This document shows, in pieces, positions 1 to 18,567 of a stretch of DNA of 32,000 nucleotides. The position numbers and the translations under genes were made by a program. Origin of the DNA: Marinifilum sp. D714 (lineage in GTDB: Bacteria; Bacteroidota; Bacteroidia; Bacteroidales; Marinifilaceae); contig NZ_JALPNU010000013.1 of assembly GCF_030851345.1 (NCBI RefSeq), positions 67,709-99,708 of the forward strand, in the 5' to 3' direction. Position 1 is the stretch's first letter, and each line of letters opens with the position of its first letter. A model generated the notes under the pieces. It saw only the letters and a program-made list of their open reading frames with translations, was not told the DNA's origin and ran no database searches.

Positions 1-1095
1 GCCATTTTTTCTGTTTTCCATGTTCAACTTTGAGCGATTGATATCAATTTTGGCATTGGCAATATTTCTATTTACTTGTCCACCATTAAAAATTGGAATG
101 CTTAAATTGAATCCGAACATTTTATTTTCACGATTTGATAACTGATCGCTTAGCCTCATCTCTTCTCGAATAATAGCTGGATCACCATTTACATCTAATC
201 CATATTCAGGGAAGTCTTTTGAATAACTAGATCCCCAATATCCAGACATGGTTAACCTAGGAGATCGTTGACCTTTCGCCAATATGAGTCCTTTTTCTGA
301 ACTTTCTAATCTGTATTTTGCAGCTTTTATTTCAGGTCTGAATTCCAAAGCATTAATAAATACAGATTCCGGATCGACCATTGAGCGAGTTGCATTCAAT
401 ACAGGCAATTCAGGAACGCTAATGTCGAAATCCGCTGGTTTTTCAAGATCTAGCAATTGTGCCAAATCTAGCAAAGCCAAATCAAGATCATTTGATGCAT
501 TAACTACCTCAAGTTCTTCTCTGGCTGCCTGAGCATTTTGTTCCATCAGAGTTCCTTTTGGAAGCGTTCCTGCTTCAACCAAAGCTTCTGTTCTTTTAAT
601 CTGAAGTTTGGTAACTTTTAATTTTTCCTGAGCTATATATAACAACTCTTTGTTGAAAAGAATATTCAAATAGGAAGAAGTAATGTTTAAAGCCAAATCT
701 TCTTTTGCTTTTTCTACATCTTGAAGGTAAGCTTGAAGGTCAAGCTCATTTTTCTTTATTGAATTATACTTTTGAAAGCCTTCGAATAAAGTTACATTTG
801 CTGATAATCCAACCGAACCACTTTGCGTATTAAGATCACCATATGTGTTATCTGCTTTTAGTGTACGACCATAGCTAAAGTCGTACCTTGTGCTACCATT
901 TAAATTTGGCAAAAGGGCAAACTTTGATTGTTTTGTATTGTTAGCTTGAACTTCAGCATCAAGTTTTCGAAGCTGTAAATCAATATTGTGTTCTTTCGCA
1001 TAGTTGATGCATTTCTCCAAACTCCATTTTTCTTGAGCATTTGCTGAAGAGAATGTAAATGCAATCGCAATTAGCGGTAATAATATTTTTTTCAT
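1..1095 (-). CDS. TolC-family outer-membrane efflux protein (N-terminal 365 aa; C-terminus lies beyond the left window edge)
   Basis: Absent from the ORF track because no stop lies inside the window. Hand translation of the minus strand from ATG at 1095 gives MKKILLPLIAIAFTFSSANAQEKWSLEKCINYAKEHNIDLQLRKLDAEVQ...TEALVEAGTLPKGTLMEQ... and stays open to base 1. It has a signal peptide and typical OMF/TolC N-terminal and helical repeat signatures. It sits directly downstream of the adaptor and ABC genes. Confidence 0.85.
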   Translation of the reverse strand, partial: MKKILLPLIAIAFTFSSANAQEKWSLEKCINYAKEHNIDLQLRKLDAEVQANNTKQSKFALLPNLNGSTRYDFSYGRTLKADNTYGDLNTQSGSVGLSANVTLFEGFQKYNSIKKNELDLQAYLQDVEKAKEDLALNITSSYLNILFNKELLYIAQEKLKVTKLQIKRTEALVEAGTLPKGTLMEQNAQAAREELEVVNASNDLDLALLDLAQLLDLEKPADFDISVPELPVLNATRSMVDPESVFINALEFRPEIKAAKYRLESSEKGLILAKGQRSPRLTMSGYWGSSYSKDFPEYGLDVNGDPAIIREEMRLSDQLSNRENKMFGFNLSIPIFNGGQVNRNIANAKIDINRSKLNMENRKNG

Positions 1096-1194
1096 TTGTT
1101 TTTTGTTTTATAATCCGTACTACGGTTTAGGCAATTATAAAAACGATTTTGATATGATAAATATGAGCAATATTAAGCTCTTTACAAAGCTTGC

Positions 1195-2328
1195 TTAATC
1201 TTTCTTTTCTTCTTTTTTCTTCTCTTTAATCATATCAGATTTTTTCTTCTTCTCACCCTTAAGTTTGTCATCTTTGGTAATACCTTCTAGAACTTCGATA
1301 TTGATTCCATCAGATAATCCGGTTTTAATGAAACGTCTTTCAAATTCTTGAGGAGAAGTTTCTACTTCAACAAAGGTTGAGTCATTCTCAAACTCTAACA
1401 AGCTTTCGTTTACAGCAAGTACTTTTTCTCTTTTATCCAAAACGATTTCAGCATTTGCACTATAACCTGAACGAATAAAATATTTATCGTTTAACTCAAC
1501 TGAAGCTTTAATTTCAAATTGAATTGCACCATTTTCTTCAACTCCTTTTGGAGAAATGTATTCAAGATTTGCATCGAATTTAACATCCTCAATTGCACCG
1601 ATGGTAAGTTTAAGGTTCATTCCTTGATTAATTTTTCCGACTTCAGTTTCATCAACTTTACCTTGGAAAATCATTTCACCCATATCAGCTACGATTGCTA
1701 CAGTAGTACCATCGTTAAATGTATTGGATTGAATTACAGAATTACCTTCCTTAATTGGAATATCCAAAATCATACCTTCAATAGTTGAGCGAATGATAGT
1801 GTTCGTTGCATTTGCTGATTTTTTGGTAACACCTTCTTTTATCAGCTGTAAATTATCTTTTGCAGCTTGCAATTCTTCTCGAGAATTACGGAAAGCCAAC
1901 TGTGTTTTCTGGAAATCTGATTCGGAGATTACTTTTTTGTCGTATAATGCTTTATCACGATTGTAATTGATCTCAGAATCTTCAAAGTTAATTTTGGCAA
2001 CATTAACACGTGATTCGGCACTATTCAAGTTAATCATGTCTGGAATGATCTTAATTTTTGCAATTGGATCACCTTTTTTCAACATTTCACCAGCTTCAAC
2101 ATATAAAGTTTCGATAATACCAGAAACACCTTGAGGTTTAATTTCAATTTCTTTTCTAGGTACCACCGAACCAGTTGCAATTGTTTTTTTAACAATGTCA
2201 GTAATCTCAGGAGATTTTGTGTTATAAACTACAGGTTTGTCTTGCGACTTTTTATAAAGGAAAAAAATGGTTCCTACAAAAAGGACGATTAACCCTACAA
2301 CCATTAAGATTCTTAGAACTTTTTTCAT
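1195..2328 (-). CDS. HlyD/MacA-type periplasmic adaptor (membrane fusion protein) of an ABC efflux system
   Basis: 377-aa ORF with one N-terminal TM anchor (ILMVVGLIVLFVGTIFFLY). It has a lipoyl-like motif (GEMLKKGDPIAKI), a coiled-coil hairpin and a beta-barrel region. It lies between the FtsX permeases and the TolC-like gene. The Lys/Glu-rich C-terminal tail is low complexity. Confidence 0.85.
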   Translation of the reverse strand: MKKVLRILMVVGLIVLFVGTIFFLYKKSQDKPVVYNTKSPEITDIVKKTIATGSVVPRKEIEIKPQGVSGIIETLYVEAGEMLKKGDPIAKIKIIPDMINLNSAESRVNVAKINFEDSEINYNRDKALYDKKVISESDFQKTQLAFRNSREELQAAKDNLQLIKEGVTKKSANATNTIIRSTIEGMILDIPIKEGNSVIQSNTFNDGTTVAIVADMGEMIFQGKVDETEVGKINQGMNLKLTIGAIEDVKFDANLEYISPKGVEENGAIQFEIKASVELNDKYFIRSGYSANAEIVLDKREKVLAVNESLLEFENDSTFVEVETSPQEFERRFIKTGLSDGINIEVLEGITKDDKLKGEKKKKSDMIKEKKKEEKKD

Positions 2329-2357
2329 GACTTGTATTATTTTCAGATTTATGACTT

Positions 2358-3608
2358 TTATTCGTATCTCAACGCATCAACGGGTTTAATTCTGATGGCT
2401 CTTTGTGCTGGTAAAAGTCCAGCAAGAACTCCAAAAAATATCAAAACTCCGAGTGCTATAAATGCTACATTAATATCAACGTAGGGATTTAAAATTTGAG
2501 GGTTAGGACTTCCTTCAGTTGCTTTGCCAATTAACTCAACAATAACAACTCCAAGTACCAATCCCCAAAATCCTGCAAAAGTGGTTAAGAATACCGATTC
2601 GTTAATGATTTGACCAACAACTAATGCAGGTTTAGCCCCAATGGCACGTTTAATCCCAAGCTCTTTGGTTCTTTCTTTCACAACAACGTGCATGATATTA
2701 CTTACACCAATTACCCCTGTGATTAGAACTCCAAAACCAATAACCCAAAACAGGAATCCAATACTATTGAATAGTCCAAATATCTTATTGAATATTTTTG
2801 CAATATTGAAGTGTCCAATTGCTTGGGTATCTTCAGGGTGAATAGAGTGACGACGAGCTAGAATTTCAAATATTTTATCTTCCAATTCAGCTACCGATTC
2901 ACCCACCTTAGCAGTTGCAAGGAACACATAGAATTTATCGCCATAATTATACAATTGTTGCAAGGTAGTATAAGGCAACTGAATGATATCATCTCGATTC
3001 CCCATGTTATTACTCAAAGGTTTGATCTCACCAATGATTTTGAAAAAAATACCGTTCACCTTTAGGTATTGCCCAATTGGATCCTCATCTTCTTCGAACA
3101 TGAGTTCTTTAACACGAGGACCAATGGTAATTACTTTACGGAATTCTTTAAGGTCATTCTCGTTGATAAACCTACCTGAGATTACTTCAACAGGATTTAC
3201 CATGTTCATTTCTGGAGATGTACCTTTGATTCTGAAATTTCCTTTTTTCTCTTTTCGAAATGTATTGTGAGTTGCACCACCACTCCAACCATTAATATCA
3301 GGAGCGATATGTTCCAATTCAGGAATGTTTTTCTTGAGAGCTAATAAATCGTCATTGGTAAATTGGTAAAATCTGTTTCTGGGCAAGCCCTTATATGCTT
3401 TGGTTGTTCTTTCTACCCAAAACACCGTTGAATTGGTTGCAAAGTTTCCCAAAGAAGATTGAATGTTATTTTGAAATCCTCTTCCTATTCCCAGAAGAGT
3501 TACCAAAATAAGAATCCCGAACATCACACCTAAGCCTGTTAGGATGGTACGAAGTTTATTCTTTTTTAGTGCGGCAGTAATTTCTTGCCATTTATCTAGA
3601 TCAAACAT
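2358..3608 (-). CDS. ABC transporter permease, MacB/FtsX type (paralog 2)
   Basis: 416 aa with MacB topology: N-terminal TM, about 220-aa periplasmic domain, then a C-terminal three-TM FtsX domain. It ends ...RIKPVDALRYE. It shares the N-terminal MFD.DKWQEI...KNK.RTILTG motif with the upstream paralog. Confidence 0.9.
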   Translation of the reverse strand: MFDLDKWQEITAALKKNKLRTILTGLGVMFGILILVTLLGIGRGFQNNIQSSLGNFATNSTVFWVERTTKAYKGLPRNRFYQFTNDDLLALKKNIPELEHIAPDINGWSGGATHNTFRKEKKGNFRIKGTSPEMNMVNPVEVISGRFINENDLKEFRKVITIGPRVKELMFEEDEDPIGQYLKVNGIFFKIIGEIKPLSNNMGNRDDIIQLPYTTLQQLYNYGDKFYVFLATAKVGESVAELEDKIFEILARRHSIHPEDTQAIGHFNIAKIFNKIFGLFNSIGFLFWVIGFGVLITGVIGVSNIMHVVVKERTKELGIKRAIGAKPALVVGQIINESVFLTTFAGFWGLVLGVVIVELIGKATEGSPNPQILNPYVDINVAFIALGVLIFFGVLAGLLPAQRAIRIKPVDALRYE

Positions 3609-3632
3609 TCTAATGTCGTTTATAAATTCGTA

Positions 3633-4886
3633 TTACTCGTCTCTTAAAGCTTCAATTGGTCTGATGGCTGCAGCTTTTCGTGCAGGGAAAAATCCTGCCA
3701 AAGCACCGGTAATTACCAAAACAATTGTTGCGCCTATTGCTATTCCAAGATCAACTTGTGGGTCAAGGAAATATATTGCTGCTGGTGCATAAATTTTTTC
3801 GATAATGTCAAACTGATTGATAGCTTCCAATAATCCTACCCCTGCAATTAATCCTACATAACCCGAAGCAGCAGTAATAAATATTGCCTCCATTAGGATT
3901 AAGCCAACAACAGAGCCTGGAGATGCGCCAATGGCTTTTCGTATACCAATTTCTTTTGTACGCTCTCTAACAACAATCATCATGATATTGAAAACGCCAA
4001 TTACGCCTAATACAATGGTGAATATTCCTATTATCCAAACAAACATTTCGATTGCACTAAATAAACCAGCGAAAGTTTGAGAGTTTTCAATATTATTCCG
4101 AATCCATAGGGCATTTTTATCTTCCTTGCTGAAGTTGTGTCTGTCAGCCATTTTATAGGTAATCTGTCTTTCAATGTTTTTACTTTCCTCTACCGAAACA
4201 TCATTTAAGGTGAAAGAGATTCTACGGATATGATCGTTGTTATTGAATATTTTTTGAGCTACAGTAATCGGAATGTATATTTCTCTTGAGTTATCATCGA
4301 AACTTGACTGATGAAAAATACCAATTACTTTAAACTTGATATCGTTAATGTTGATGTATTTGTTAAGAGCAGTTTCTTTTGGGAAAAGTACTTTTTTTAC
4401 CTCATCCTGAATGGCTACAACTTTTCTGTGTTCATCCAGGTCATTTTGATTAAGAAACCTTCCCTTAAGGATTTCAAAGTTTTTAATTTCTTTGTAGGTA
4501 TCATGAACAGGCGATACGTTAAAATTTCCGAAATTATTTTTGTAGGAAATGGTTTCAGCTCCTGGAATGTATGACATCGCCGAAATCACATCTATTTTTT
4601 GAATCGATTTTTTCAGATTCAGGAAATCATCATTTACCATTTGAATCCTTTTGCCTTCTGGAGTTCCTTTGTATGCTTTGGTCGTTCTACCACCAAATAT
4701 TTGCATGCTGTTTGTTGCATCCTGAGCAAAAACAGAAGTCATACCATTACGTAGGCCTCTTCCTGCACCCAAAAGGAAAATCAACATAAATATACCCGTT
4801 GCAACCGAAAAACCGGTTAATATCGTACGGGTTTTGTTTTTCCTGATGGTACTAAATATTTCTTGCCACTTATCTCTGTCGAACAT
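3633..4886 (-). CDS. ABC transporter permease, MacB/FtsX type (paralog 1)
   Basis: 417 aa with the same architecture as 2358..3608. It ends ...AIRPIEALRDE. Confidence 0.9.
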   Translation of the reverse strand: MFDRDKWQEIFSTIRKNKTRTILTGFSVATGIFMLIFLLGAGRGLRNGMTSVFAQDATNSMQIFGGRTTKAYKGTPEGKRIQMVNDDFLNLKKSIQKIDVISAMSYIPGAETISYKNNFGNFNVSPVHDTYKEIKNFEILKGRFLNQNDLDEHRKVVAIQDEVKKVLFPKETALNKYININDIKFKVIGIFHQSSFDDNSREIYIPITVAQKIFNNNDHIRRISFTLNDVSVEESKNIERQITYKMADRHNFSKEDKNALWIRNNIENSQTFAGLFSAIEMFVWIIGIFTIVLGVIGVFNIMMIVVRERTKEIGIRKAIGASPGSVVGLILMEAIFITAASGYVGLIAGVGLLEAINQFDIIEKIYAPAAIYFLDPQVDLGIAIGATIVLVITGALAGFFPARKAAAIRPIEALRDE

Positions 4887-4907
4887 AGCTTGATATTAGG
4901 GTTTGTT

Positions 4908-5627
4908 TTATTCCTGAAGAGGAATTTTAACCGATTCAGTATTGTTAATTTTGTTATTCTCTACGATTGATTCGATAACACCATCCTTTAAATTGATGAT
5001 TCTATCTGTCATATGGGCAATGTCATTTTCGTGAGTAACAATAATTACTGTAATTCCTGATTGGTTGATTTCTCTTAAAAGATCCATTACTTCAATTGAA
5101 GTTGCAGAGTCAAGAGCTCCGGTTGGTTCATCGGCTAAAATAATTTTGGGTTGGGTGATCATAGCACGGGCGATAGCTACTCTTTGCTTTTGCCCACCCG
5201 AAAGTTCGTTTGGCATATGGTGTGCCCATTCTTTTAATCCCATTTTATCAAGATATTCTACGGCAAGATTATTTCTCTTTTTTCTTGATACTTTTTGATA
5301 GTAAAGTGGGAGTGCCACGTTTTCCATGGCATTTTTAAAAGAAATCAGATTAAATGATTGAAATACAAAACCCAACAAATTATTGCGAAGCTTGGCAGCT
5401 TTTGTTTCGCTCATCGATTTAATTTCCTCATTGTTTAGCTCGTAAACTCCTTCGTCATGGTTGTCTAAAAGTCCGAGAATATTCAATAATGTTGACTTTC
5501 CGGACCCGGAAGATCCCATGATTGATACCAATTCACCTTCTTTAATGTGCAAATCGATACCTTTAAGGACATGCAACTTGTTGGTTCCGGTAATGTACGA
5601 TTTGTGAATGTTTTGTAATCGGATCAT
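4908..5627 (-). CDS. ABC transporter ATP-binding protein (MacB/LolD-like ATPase)
   Basis: Walker A GSSGSGKST, ABC signature LSGGQKQRVAIARA, Walker B ILADEPTGALD, and H-loop VTHE. First gene of the minus-strand operon. Confidence 0.95.
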   Translation of the reverse strand: MIRLQNIHKSYITGTNKLHVLKGIDLHIKEGELVSIMGSSGSGKSTLLNILGLLDNHDEGVYELNNEEIKSMSETKAAKLRNNLLGFVFQSFNLISFKNAMENVALPLYYQKVSRKKRNNLAVEYLDKMGLKEWAHHMPNELSGGQKQRVAIARAMITQPKIILADEPTGALDSATSIEVMDLLREINQSGITVIIVTHENDIAHMTDRIINLKDGVIESIVENNKINNTESVKIPLQE

Positions 5628-7942: not shown

Positions 7943-7998
7943 AATATTTACGTAAATATTAATTGATATTACGTAATTGTGAATTCATATTACGTAAT
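7943..7998. promoter_or_regulatory. Three TTACGTAA palindromes at exact 21-bp spacing (candidate operator or activator array)
   Basis: Site 1 is the perfect 18-bp palindrome AATATTTACGTAAATATT (7943..7960). Sites 2 and 3 are ATTACGTAAT (7968..7977 and 7989..7998). The CG centres fall at 7951/52, 7972/73 and 7993/94. Confidence 0.6.
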
Positions 7999-8080
7999 CG
8001 TTAAACCATACAAAAACAGCTTGAATATTAATCATATTCCTATTAAATTTAAGGTAGTAAAACAGTAAACTTTAGGGGAT

Positions 8081-11473: not shown

Positions 11474-12181
11474 CTATTCTTCGTTTGTTGTTTCTTCAAC
11501 TACTTCTTCATTTTCTTCGGCTTGTGTGGTCGATTTGCTCGAAGCATAAAGCACATAGTCGTTGTAAAAAGCTTCGTTTTTGTGCTCCCAGATTCTTTTA
11601 CCCACCTCGCACAATTCAACAATTAATTCGTAAAGCTCATTACCCATTGCAAGACGCTCCACACTTTTTTGTTCGCGAATTGATATGGCCTCGGCTTGTG
11701 CATCAATGGCATCGTCTAAAGCAATGGTAGCATCGGTAGTTTGGGTGATTAACTCGGGAGTTACATTGCGTTTGCTCAATGGTTCTTTAAAGAATTCGGC
11801 AGTTTGACAAACATGCTTGGCATAGGCTACCAACTCATTATCGGTTTTGCGATCTACTCCGCTAAAACGGAAGGTTGCATACTCTTTACTACCGCTTCCC
11901 AAAGCCAATTTGGCTTTAAAAGCAACTTCTCCTAAAAGTCCTACCAAAGTACTTCTGCATTCGTCCTTGGCATTGGTTTTTAAGGTTTTTTGTCCTTCCC
12001 AATACATGTCGGGCAGGATATCTTTAAACTGTTTGGTTTTATCTGCCACCTGGGTAGGAATGGTTTCTTCGTAGCCAAACTTCACGAATTCCGCCACATC
12101 ACGAGCAACAACAGCTTGAACTCTATCGCCGCGCTGTCCTAACTCAGAATAGGCCATTGTAAATTTTTTAGTCTGTTTCAT
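11474..12181 (-). CDS. Hypothetical helical protein with acidic C-terminal tail
   Basis: 235-aa ORF, monocistronic: 228-bp upstream gap and its own terminator. No signal peptide or TM segment. The tail is ...TTQAEENEEVVEETTNEE. No family recognised. Confidence 0.65.
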   Translation of the reverse strand: MKQTKKFTMAYSELGQRGDRVQAVVARDVAEFVKFGYEETIPTQVADKTKQFKDILPDMYWEGQKTLKTNAKDECRSTLVGLLGEVAFKAKLALGSGSKEYATFRFSGVDRKTDNELVAYAKHVCQTAEFFKEPLSKRNVTPELITQTTDATIALDDAIDAQAEAISIREQKSVERLAMGNELYELIVELCEVGKRIWEHKNEAFYNDYVLYASSKSTTQAEENEEVVEETTNEE

Positions 12182-12451
12182 TGTTTAATAATTTTAGGGT
12201 GATTAATATATTTTACCGTTGTAATTAATATGTTGTAAAAAAATACAGATTTAAGTTAATAATATTATGCTTTTACTTGTATTAAAATATGTTAAAAGTA
12301 ATTGGAGGTAGCTGAAATGCCGATTAACAGTAGCTTTGCGACTATTTTGTTAGATGAGATTTTAGTTTTCGGCTTATAATCAGGTGCTAAAATGACTTTT
12401 TGTTTGAGTTTAAAAAGGCGAAAATAATAGTTGATATGTCATTTTTTGTAT

Positions 12452-12682
12452 GAGACCTGCCAATGTTAGCGTGAGACTTGCCAATGTTTTCCTCAATGTT
12501 AATAAGTGCACGCTCATACCTGCCATCTGCATCGAGAGACCTGCGAACCGCACGCTCAATGTTGAAAACTGCGCCGTCAATGTTAATAAATGCACCGTGA
12601 GACCGGTCATCTGCATCGAGAGACCTGCCATCTGCACGCTCAATGTTGATAACCGCACGCTCATTGTTAATAAGTGCAATGC
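12452..12682. repeat. Degenerate tandem array, 11 x 21 bp, organised as 84-bp higher-order repeats
   Basis: There are two unit types: GAGACCTGCC..-type and CAATGTTAATAA.TGCAC..-type. The block 12494..12577 repeats at 12578..12661 with 69/84 identical by hand count, and a third block starts at 12662. The array is bracketed by the 11-bp inverted repeat CTGCCAATGTT (12457..12467) / AACATTGGCAG (12702..12712). Confidence 0.9.
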
Positions 12683-12849
12683 ATTTGGTAGGAATGAGTC
12701 AAACATTGGCAGATGGGGGCATGCATTTGCTCACTCTCACAAGCCCAAGGGCAGGCAGAAGCACGCCGATGAGGAGAATTAGCGTACCAATAACAGGATT
12801 GAGGGAAACAAAAACAAGAATGAGAATGCAGTTGTGGGTGTTATGGTAG

Positions 12850-12870
12850 AGACGTAGCACTGCTACGTCT
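12850..12870. repeat. Palindromic hairpin element, copy A (AGACGTAGCA-C-TGCTACGTCT)
   Basis: 21-nt perfect palindrome around a central C. It shares flanks GTAG.GACGT...ACGTCT.TA with copy B at 16993..17010. Confidence 0.7.
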
Positions 12871-13243
12871 TTACGGATGAGGGGGGATTTTGTGAGGAAT
12901 GGGGAGTTTTCCATAAAGCCTGCATTTAATGCTCGCGCAATCTTTTATTCAATTGATCAATTAGAGCGATATTGAAACAAATCAGGTAAAGATTAAAATT
13001 GCATAGTGTGACACAATGTCCTAGTTAATAGTTGTTTGTGTCAAAAATTCAGAAAAAATATTTTCAATAATGAAAAATTGTCAGTTAACAGTATTGCGGG
13101 GTTTTTAAAGAGCTTTTGATTTTCAGTGTAATACAAAATGTTGGTGGTTTTGGCATTCAGTTTGAAAGACATAAAGTGAATCGCGATTCTAATTTTAATG
13201 AGAATATAAGTATGTATTAATTTAAATTAGGGAGGATATAATT

Positions 13244-13687
13244 ATGACTTTAGTTAAGAAAAATACCGATAATTTTTTCCCATCCTTCTTTGATAACTTT
13301 TTCTCCAGAGATTGGATGGATTGGAATACCACAAATTTCTCAACTACAAACACCACTTTGCCTGCGGTGAATGTAAAGGAGGATAAAAACGAATTTACGA
13401 TTGAGGTTGCGGCACCAGGAATGGATAAGAAAGACTTCAATATTAATTTAGAGAACAATCAGTTGACCATTTCTTCTGAAAAGAAGAGTGAGGTTGAAAA
13501 TAAGGGAGACAAATATACCAGAAAAGAATTCTCTTATTGTTCGTTCCAGCGTTCGTTCCAGTTGCCTTCGGAGGTGGTGGATGGCGATAAAATAAAGGCC
13601 AATTACTCTGATGGAATTTTGGTGATTCACTTGCCTAAAAAAGAAGAAGCGAAGCCTAAACCAGCCAGAATTATTAAGATTTCCTAA
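13244..13687 (+). CDS. Hsp20/alpha-crystallin family small heat-shock protein
   Basis: 147 aa. The alpha-crystallin core is PAVNVKEDKNEFTIEVAAPGMDKKDFNINLENNQLTISSEK...FQRSFQLPSEVVDGDKIKANYSDGILVIHLPK. It is preceded by a strong SD, GGGAGGA (13230..13236). Confidence 0.95.
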   Translation: MTLVKKNTDNFFPSFFDNFFSRDWMDWNTTNFSTTNTTLPAVNVKEDKNEFTIEVAAPGMDKKDFNINLENNQLTISSEKKSEVENKGDKYTRKEFSYCSFQRSFQLPSEVVDGDKIKANYSDGILVIHLPKKEEAKPKPARIIKIS

Positions 13688-17450: not shown

Positions 17451-17456
17451 TTTAAG

Positions 17457-17527
17457 TTGACCCATAAGGACTCGAACCTTAAACGTCTGGACCAAAACCA
17501 GATGTGTTACCATTACACCATGGGTCA
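17457..17527 (-). tRNA. tRNA-Gln (anticodon UUG), copy 1
   Basis: Reverse complement: TGACCCA TG GTGT AATGGTA ACAC A TCTGG TTTTGGT CCAGA CGTT TAAGG TTCGAGT CCTTA TGGGTCA A. This is a full cloverleaf with a U1-A72 pair as in bacterial tRNA-Gln, the anticodon loop is uU-UUG-Gu, and CCA is not encoded. Confidence 0.9.
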
Positions 17528-18493: not shown

Positions 18494-18496
18494 AAG

Positions 18497-18567
18497 TTGA
18501 CCCATAAGGACTCGAACCTTAAACGTCTGGACCAAAACCAGATGTGTTACCATTACACCATGGGTCA
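18497..18567 (-). tRNA. tRNA-Gln (anticodon UUG), copy 2
   Basis: All 71 nt are identical to copy 1. Confidence 0.9.

Follow-up and report, generated by a model that had tools for sequence, protein, structure and literature searches.

The 32 kb window analysed here (32,000 nucleotides from Marinifilum sp. D714, Bacteroidota, Marinilabiliales) carries at positions 12452-12682 an array of 21 bp repeats. Judged by its conservation among related genomes, this array is a non-coding cis element which belongs to the adjacent gene for a 235 residue protein (11474-12181, minus strand; MDQ2179594, annotated as hypothetical). We tentatively favour the interpretation that it represents a private, phased row of protein-binding sites on duplex DNA, similar to operators or iterons, which would co-evolve with the 235 residue protein gene. 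The initial annotation of this stretch had considered that it may be a novel repeat protein, an iteron array to which a protein binds, or a structured RNA locus upstream of hsp20. An iteron-like array turned out to be the best fit; the repeat protein and the link to hsp20 did not hold up, and the structured RNA found no support.

The array consists of eleven adjoining, in-register 21 bp units which fall into two plus-strand classes, GAGACCTGCC... and CAATGTTAATAA.TGCAC..., as had been described initially. Their order on the plus strand is A' A' B A A B B A A B B, where A stands for GAGACCTGCCATCTGCATCGA-like units, B for CAATGTTAATAAGTGCACGCT-like units, and A' for GAGACCTGCCAATGTTAGCGT. The 84 bp blocks 12494-12577 and 12578-12661 differ at exactly 15 of 84 positions, in agreement with the earlier count, and Tandem Repeats Finder reports a period of 84 with 2.2 copies (score 264) besides several rows with a period of 21. 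When the entire window was scanned for lagged self-similarity, the array region alone gave a repeat signal; three other hits, one of them at lag 21, were obtained from about 184 kb of control DNA of related loci. As stated before, the array is richer in GC (about 0.47-0.52) than its flanks (0.16-0.35).

A 21 nt periodicity, which had been overlooked, persists in degenerate form to about position 12845. This distal continuation (12683-12845) is apparent both from a layout in 21 nt rows and from the lag-21 signal. It carries cores in inverted orientation (plus strand: GGTAGG at 12687-12692, GGCAGA at 12708-12713, GGCAGG at 12750-12755, and AACAGG at 12792-12797), and the core array carries CCTGCC in the same register columns in which the distal part has these GGCAGG-type inverted cores. 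A 21 nt insert, CCAACAAAAACTCCCTTCTAC, at 12838/12839 is absent from D714 and M. fragile JCM and is present in most other Marinifilum, including a locus which codes for an identical protein (L033; related loci are designated by L numbers throughout). The inverted repeat CTGCCAATGTT / AACATTGGCAG, previously described as bracketing the array, is found at 12457-12467 and 12702-12712 and reaches 32 nt at 75% complementarity. A long-range stem formed by this repeat was considered and rejected: it is uncompensated in Marinifilum flexuosum and McD1.5 and deleted in L004.

Orthologous loci were retrieved with the 235 residue protein as query. The proposed position of the element upstream of hsp20 proved to be wrong as a functional link. 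In Marinifilum fragile JCM 15579 and Marinifilum breve, the block corresponding to 12182-12900 remains joined to the gene for the 235 residue protein, and about 4 kb separate the array from hsp20. This insert (L001, about 930-5280; L003, about 1990-5340) holds four to five open reading frames (ORFs), one of them a DUF6320 protein, and lies directly beside a conserved hairpin, next to the equivalent of window positions 12875-12900. Neighbouring genes change from locus to locus, the only constant one being that for the 235 residue protein. A rule that the upstream neighbour is always divergently oriented was tried and is broken in L004, L007, L018, and L032.

Linkage was counted for loci with at least about 300 nt of upstream DNA. 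The best upstream repeat period is 21 or 42 in all such loci except L022 and L029, both of which are weak. Arrays with these periods are located about 40-400 bp upstream of the gene, against a background of about one lag-21 hit per 184 kb, and this includes same-genome paralogues as well as relatives with 27-35% protein sequence identity. The distance from the array end to the start codon is 220-390 bp in Marinilabiliales and 40-140 bp in distant relatives. In M. fragile, M. flexuosum, and M. breve, a second paralogue is likewise preceded by an array of its own in the corresponding position, with units (TAAGGCGGGATTGGC plus six variable bases) that are unrelated to those of the window; an exact-protein look-up for this second paralogue in D714 returned no record. 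Upstream arrays also accompany homologues in Labilibaculum, Ancylomarina, Labilibacter, Mangrovibacterium, and other genomes. Among 16 metagenome loci, 13 have an array, down to 27% protein identity; the other three have no usable upstream DNA (L020), a weak best lag of 41 (L022), or a weak signal (L029). Arrays may be highly regular, as in L031 with 12 near-perfect copies of AAAGCATAATGAACCTTGGGA, and further units are TAnnnnGGAAAATGTTATTTG (L030) and nGAGnTGTCCTGAnGAGCnTT (L023). The period is exactly 21 in every lineage, while units from different lineages have no sequence relationship. In 17 of 19 arrays, the units keep their orientation with respect to the gene, and a weak common core (T-A-A-G-G-C-G-like) suggests that the arrays may share descent.

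The initial annotation had allowed for the possibility that conservation outside this genome might be lacking, as would be seen for a decaying remnant. The array is, however, both conserved and constrained in relatives. For four close species, changes per site amount to 0.09 in the array, 0.21 in the spacer between array and gene, and 0.29 at third codon positions of the gene. The same is seen upon comparison with L033, where the identical protein is encoded with 23 synonymous differences: 3.6% of the array, 12.6% of the spacer, and about 9.7% of the third codon positions differ. Change in the array is about three times slower than at synonymous sites, which, on the basis of these alignments, is purifying selection. 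Its strength follows the 21 nt unit. On the plus strand, conservation covers unit positions 4-16, and variability covers positions 17-21 plus 1-3, independent of codon position; each unit thus has about 13 bp of conserved core joined to about 8 bp of variable linker.

Among Marinifilum species, the array can be aligned without any indel. Copy number, for which variation between strains had been envisaged, is constant in the core array, with 11 units in identical order throughout nine Marinifilum orthologues. The array therefore does not behave as a hypervariable (phase-variation) promoter repeat; the variation consists of the one distal 21 nt indel and an 84 nt difference between paralogue arrays. 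The latter concerns M. fragile (L010) and M. flexuosum (L012), whose paralogue arrays differ by exactly 84 nt (four units); their distal degenerate part is diverged by about 1.5-3.6%, compared with 8.6% at third codon positions of the gene.

One locus departs from uniform divergence. Sequence identity between L017 and the window amounts to 92% for the gene and 87% for the distal part, but only to 70% for the array, and the L017 array is 82% identical to that of the more distant L006. In both L006 and L017, all 11 units have changed at the same unit positions, and the L017 units differ from those of the window at positions 1-2. Comparison of L017 1455-1709 with window positions 12452-12700 reveals a mosaic locus, in which the first 10 codons contain three L006-like residues. 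The mosaic suggests that array, spacer, and gene start may have been subject to recombinational exchange.

As judged by codon-based comparisons, the array is not a gene, and the heptad ORFs are a by-product of non-coding 21 bp repeats. The two ORFs exist as described, one on the plus strand (12450-12782, 110 aa) and one on the minus strand (12410-12706, 98 aa), both with ATG starts. A third frame, overlooked earlier (the minus frame of ORF 12699-12914), is open through the array save for one TGA. The two 84 bp blocks show four synonymous differences in the plus frame and one in the minus frame, confirming the earlier counts, and three in the third frame. From these counts, a constraint on the plus frame had been surmised. 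This hint falls because the plus and minus ORFs have their third codon positions in common, so that neither synonymous count discriminates between them, and because a codon-phase bias is absent. Substitutions in the array are distributed over the codon phases as 5/9/9 in the four close species and as 44/39/52 in seven Marinifilum (chi-square p=0.38), compared with 12/5/60 and 48/28/180 (p=2e-35) in the 235 residue protein gene of the same taxa. The codon-phase base composition of the arrays was also considered as a coding test but proved to be uninformative, as it is dominated by the unit consensus.

The ORFs themselves are not stable. Their starts and stops shift between species, the heptad leucine of the minus frame is replaced by arginine in every unit of L006 and L017, and the L026 array has stops in all six frames; several other related arrays are closed on one strand, or are open without a start codon. 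Because the chance of a stop-free frame in a 21-mer is about 0.7 ((61/64)^7), open frames are expected in any 21 nt repeat, and the plus-strand ORF 12450-12782 is open solely because the unit has no stop codons in that frame. That the translations do not resemble a familiar family was borne out, since neither has a match in Pfam, NCBIfam, PHROGs, or PADLOC; for each, a single match was found among 5.8 billion proteins. The TGA at 12699-12701 aligns with TGT (Cys) in M. flexuosum and with TCT (Ser) in two other relatives. A selenocysteine reading of this codon was set aside because the third minus frame is devoid of coding signal, and the variation is therefore probably meaningless. The even codon phases, the shifting ORF ends, the closed related arrays, and the lack of a family lead us to reject the proposed novel repeat protein.

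Several features bear on whether the array acts as DNA or as RNA. Inverted cores are in helical phase with direct ones in the window and in L012, L018, L023, L030, and L031. L023 has about 10 inverted and about 10 direct units at a strict spacing of 21 bp, the common part being only an 8 bp core, GTCCTGA(A/C). Because an RNA-binding protein could not read cores in both orientations, duplex DNA is favoured; 8 nt cores with 13 non-complementary bases between them would not form a stable hairpin. The joint alteration of the units in L006 and L017 is expected if the sites track one specificity. A structured RNA, as considered initially, is unsupported. Rfam gave no match in the window or in 13 related loci, the RNAalifold covariation term of the array alignment is +1.18, and fold stability on either strand is similar to that of column-permuted arrays (z about 0), for which the same column permutation was applied to every unit.

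There are also possible signs of transcription. At its outer edge, the conserved block carries a hairpin, GTAGAGACGTAGCA-C-TGCTACGTCTTTAC (12846-12874, plus strand, 93% complementary). This hairpin is retained by orthologues, with changes on both sides in L006 (GACATGG/CCATGTC), and may be a terminator for a plus-strand transcript; it is graded as weak because it is followed by TTTAC only, and it fails the terminator scan. At 12331-12338 (plus strand), TAGCTTTG is the sole match in the gap between the gene and hsp20 to the Bacteroidota -7 promoter motif TAnnTTTG. It is directed at the array and is found at the orthologous place in five of nine Marinifilum loci; its assignment as a promoter element aimed at the array is speculative. 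The terminator scan gave no terminator-like site between array and gene in the window (12182-12451). On the gene strand, a canonical TAnnTTTG promoter is present in the spacer of just one of 28 loci, so that the gene might be transcribed from further upstream. In L019, a canonical terminator (1287-1313; 11 bp stem followed by TTTGTTTTT) is found shortly beyond the distal end of the array, on the opposite strand with respect to the family gene, and no ORF separates it from the array.

According to the tentatively favoured explanation, there would be one protein-binding site per 21 bp. As this spacing corresponds to two helical turns, all sites would be on the same side of the helix, with a few oppositely oriented cores at the distal edge. 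Binding of a sequence-specific factor would be cooperative and coat the array, as is the case for iterons, plasmid centromeres, and multi-site operators, and the resulting protein-array complex would either regulate the neighbouring gene or employ the array as a platform for assembly. The unit sequence is private to each paralogue and lineage, so the binding specificity would be inherited together with the locus, and the protein encoded by the linked gene would be the simplest candidate for the binder. That the array acts as DNA, which protein binds it, and what regulation results are our inferences.

That the array might nevertheless be a real heptad-repeat protein gene, encoded at 12450-12782 (plus) or 12410-12706 (minus), is hardly credible and already largely refuted. 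An open frame of 98-110 aa with ATG starts, a period divisible by 3 with indels in multiples of 21, and the occasional calling of an ORF in this place by gene callers (L014, L016, L033) are what one would expect of a gene; they are outweighed by substitutions without codon-phase bias, unconserved starts and stops, the change from leucine to arginine throughout the minus frame of L006/L017, related arrays that are closed in six frames or lack a start codon, the chance expectation of open frames in 21 nt arrays, and the lack of both a homologous protein family and a call by the NCBI annotation pipeline (PGAP). We likewise consider it very improbable that the array has no function, being a neutral minisatellite or decaying remnant, and this explanation is already disfavoured. 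It would account for the 84 nt copy-number difference between the paralogue arrays of two species, for the distal 21 nt indels, and for the degenerate state of the M. breve paralogue array (L011). It is hard to reconcile with a rate of change about one third of that at synonymous sites, with the same number and order of units in nine orthologues, and with the presence of an array in front of essentially all family members, including those with as little as 27% identity.

A more serious alternative, which we regard as unlikely, is that the array works as an RNA, be it a non-coding RNA of its own or a long leader, with units of 21 or 42 nt that the linked protein binds or processes. Parallels would be the repeat antitoxin RNAs of type III toxin-antitoxin (TA) systems or a protein-titrating scaffold. 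The location directly upstream of one protein gene with which the array is co-inherited, the lineage-specific units with an orientation kept in 17 of 19 arrays, and the common 42 nt super-period are compatible with this. So are the conserved hairpin at the array edge in the window, the opposite-strand terminator in L019, and the scarcity of a gene-strand TAnnTTTG in the spacers (1 of 28 loci), which leaves room for a more distal transcription start. An inverted core, however, is a different RNA sequence and yet is conserved at phased positions; a conserved secondary structure is lacking, stability being equal to that of column-permuted arrays; the window has no terminator between array and gene; and the hints of transcription are on the strand opposite to the gene, unlike in type III TA systems. 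Furthermore, the protein is all-alpha and matches neither ToxN/AbiQ nor any PADLOC model, and a fixed period of exactly 21 over 27-100% protein identity would not be expected from RNA alone. Such a period would also fit structural DNA that acts independently of its sequence, small bends of any unit repeated every two helical turns adding up in phase to a curved or stiff upstream element which sets the geometry of a promoter without a dedicated binder. We consider this quite improbable. It could explain why the period is invariant when unit sequences are unrelated between lineages, why the array is upstream in every locus, and why some arrays (L027, L030, L031) have one A-tract per unit. It does not explain why, within each lineage, purifying selection acts on particular positions that make up a core of about 13 bp, why L023 retains the 8 bp core in both orientations, or why all units switched in concert at the same positions in L006 and L017, and 220-390 bp to the start codon, as found in Marinilabiliales, is far for an effect of curvature.

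A row of binding sites on duplex DNA also has points against it. The candidate binder, the 235 residue protein, has no recognisable DNA-binding domain (Pfam, NCBIfam), no fold match among PDB or viral structures, and no match in a sequence search against PDB. It is acidic to neutral (isoelectric point about 5-6.5 for residues 1-215) and ends in an acidic tail. Longer forms in distant relatives add C-terminal FN3-like or CarboxypepD_reg beta-sandwich domains, which is unusual for a DNA-binding protein. The occurrence of A and B units in one array would need a tolerant binder or two binding modes, and 10-20 sites are far beyond the needs of an ordinary operator. Finally, the hairpin of the window and the opposite-strand terminator of L019 would fit a transcript that contains the array; together with the TAnnTTTG box, they keep a transcribed-array model alive.

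The linked protein belongs to a large family. A profile search retrieved 1212 family clusters at E<=1e-3 (at least 1200 clusters at 50% identity), with length classes of about 230, 315, and 400 aa, from Marinilabiliales and other uncultured bacteria. The AlphaFold2 model of the 235 residue protein, which is of good confidence (predicted local distance difference test score 87.6), is all-alpha with very long helices. Pfam DUF6261 and NCBIfam PQLLE_fam were considered as assignments and rejected, the matches being below threshold. The family has no match in plasmids, phages, or viral contigs. Searches of a literature library for PQLLE, DUF6261, and 21 bp repeats in Bacteroidetes returned nothing relevant and no description of an array-gene module, which thus appears to be undescribed so far.

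A further step would be to regard array and gene as a new two-part module, in which each family member has a private 21-bp-phased array that is recognised by its own product. We consider this possible, albeit doubtful. If true, it would constitute a new class of self-addressed protein-nucleic-acid system, with the all-alpha domain as a new fold for binding nucleic acids and the variable C-terminal beta-sandwich domains as the output. The mosaic exchange of array types between lineages would then point to diversifying selection.

Whatever its mode of action, the array illustrates that long heptad ORFs in a 21 bp repeat do not count as evidence for a gene, a point of relevance to annotation, as such ORFs are indeed called in some genomes by gene callers. 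A large family of unknown function is now tied to a conserved non-coding partner, the period of which is fixed at two helical turns and the sequence of which is re-invented in each lineage. This provides an experimental handle on the family, namely whether the protein binds its own array, and whether as DNA or as RNA. In addition, the naturally occurring, matched pairs of protein and site lend themselves to studies on the evolution of binding specificity.

With respect to the setting, the 1.06 kb gap in which the array is located extends from the 235 residue protein gene, the constant partner of the array, to the gene coding for Hsp20 (13244-13687, plus strand; MDQ2179595), and no protein is called in it by PGAP. 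The spacer from array to gene start (12182-12451) is AT-rich (GC 0.16-0.35), evolves at an approximately neutral rate, and contains no motif that is conserved across lineages. Other neighbours in the window are a 624 aa ORF annotated as metallophosphoesterase, a CotH-like protein, a DegP-like protease, and a radical SAM protein.

Some resemblances between units and gene starts were observed. Read on the gene strand, the first B unit, TTATTAACAATGA (12662-12678), is closely similar to the translation start region of the 235 residue protein gene, TTATTAAACAATGA (12185-12198). L031 has a similar 8 nt match between unit and gene start; such resemblance may be due to chance. L026, a distant relative, carries about 12 copies of the 7 nt repeat TTAGTGC (187-270), which constitute its array, and, just before the start codon, four copies of its reverse complement CCACTAA (397-425), with a predicted duplex that is significant against shuffled sequences (z=-7). 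RNA pairing of the array with the gene start region was rejected as a general mechanism: it is significant in L026 alone and not in 12 other loci.

Elsewhere in the window, three copies of ATATTACGTAAT, with the palindromic core TTACGTAA, occur at an exact spacing of 21 bp (7948-8010), and this motif array recurs in M. breve (L003 10263-10323). By its appearance, the triplet looks like an ordinary phased transcription-factor operator, unconnected with the main array. Two identical genes for tRNA-Gln(ttg) are encoded about 1 kb apart on the minus strand (17456-17527 and 18496-18567). They have about 50 nt of flanking sequence in common, including a terminator-like hairpin, AAAAAGCTCCGAAAGTAATTTCGAAGCTTTTTT.

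Among known systems, the iterons of theta-replicating plasmids (P1, F, R6K, pPS10) share with the array direct repeats of 17-22 bp at about two helical turns, an AT-rich stretch and the gene for the binder (for the array, the candidate binder) adjoining, related inverted copies, and repeat sequences that are specific for each replicon. The window indeed has 11 units of 21 bp and adjacent to them 270 bp with a GC content of 0.16-0.35, though the latter is a weak iteron feature because AT-richness is normal for intergenic DNA of this genome. Unlike plasmid iterons, the array is chromosomal and syntenic in several genera, its protein family has no match in plasmid or phage collections, two unit classes occur per array, and the inverted copies are distal to the gene rather than at its promoter. 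The protein is acidic and has no Rep or winged-helix signature. A plasmid iteron origin is excluded by the lack of a Rep protein and of plasmid context.

Plasmid centromeres bound by ParR, ParG, or omega (R1 parC, pSK41, pSM19035) likewise consist of many short, phased direct and inverted repeats upstream of an operon; they are cooperatively coated and double as operator. Phased direct and inverted repeats upstream of the gene are found here as well. In contrast to centromeres, the unit is 21 bp and not 7-11 or 20 bp, the locus is chromosomal, and one genome may carry paralogous modules; neither a motor gene (ParA, ParM, TubZ) nor one for a ribbon-helix-helix protein adjoins the array. Operators of AraC/XylS- and LytTR-type regulators have direct repeats at a spacing of exactly 21 bp, in which the conserved core is in two parts and the linker is variable. 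They comprise two or three repeats and go with a recognisable regulator domain, whereas the arrays described here have 11-20 units and no such regulator adjacent.

Type III TA systems (toxIN, cptIN, tenpIN, abiQ) also have a repeat array immediately upstream of a single protein gene, with which it co-evolves. Their repeats are 34-45 nt long and occur 2-5.5 times, a terminator precedes the toxin gene, and the toxin is a ToxN-like endoribonuclease. Here, units of 21 nt occur 11-20 times, the terminator scan of the window gave none between array and gene, and some units are inverted; the protein has no PADLOC or Pfam match to ToxN, AbiQ, CptN, or TenpN, and its predicted fold is all-alpha. The array fails the tests for a plasmid iteron origin, a partition locus, a type III TA system, a known RNA, and a repeat protein. 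In the way it is likely to work, it most resembles iteron, centromere, or multi-site operator arrays.

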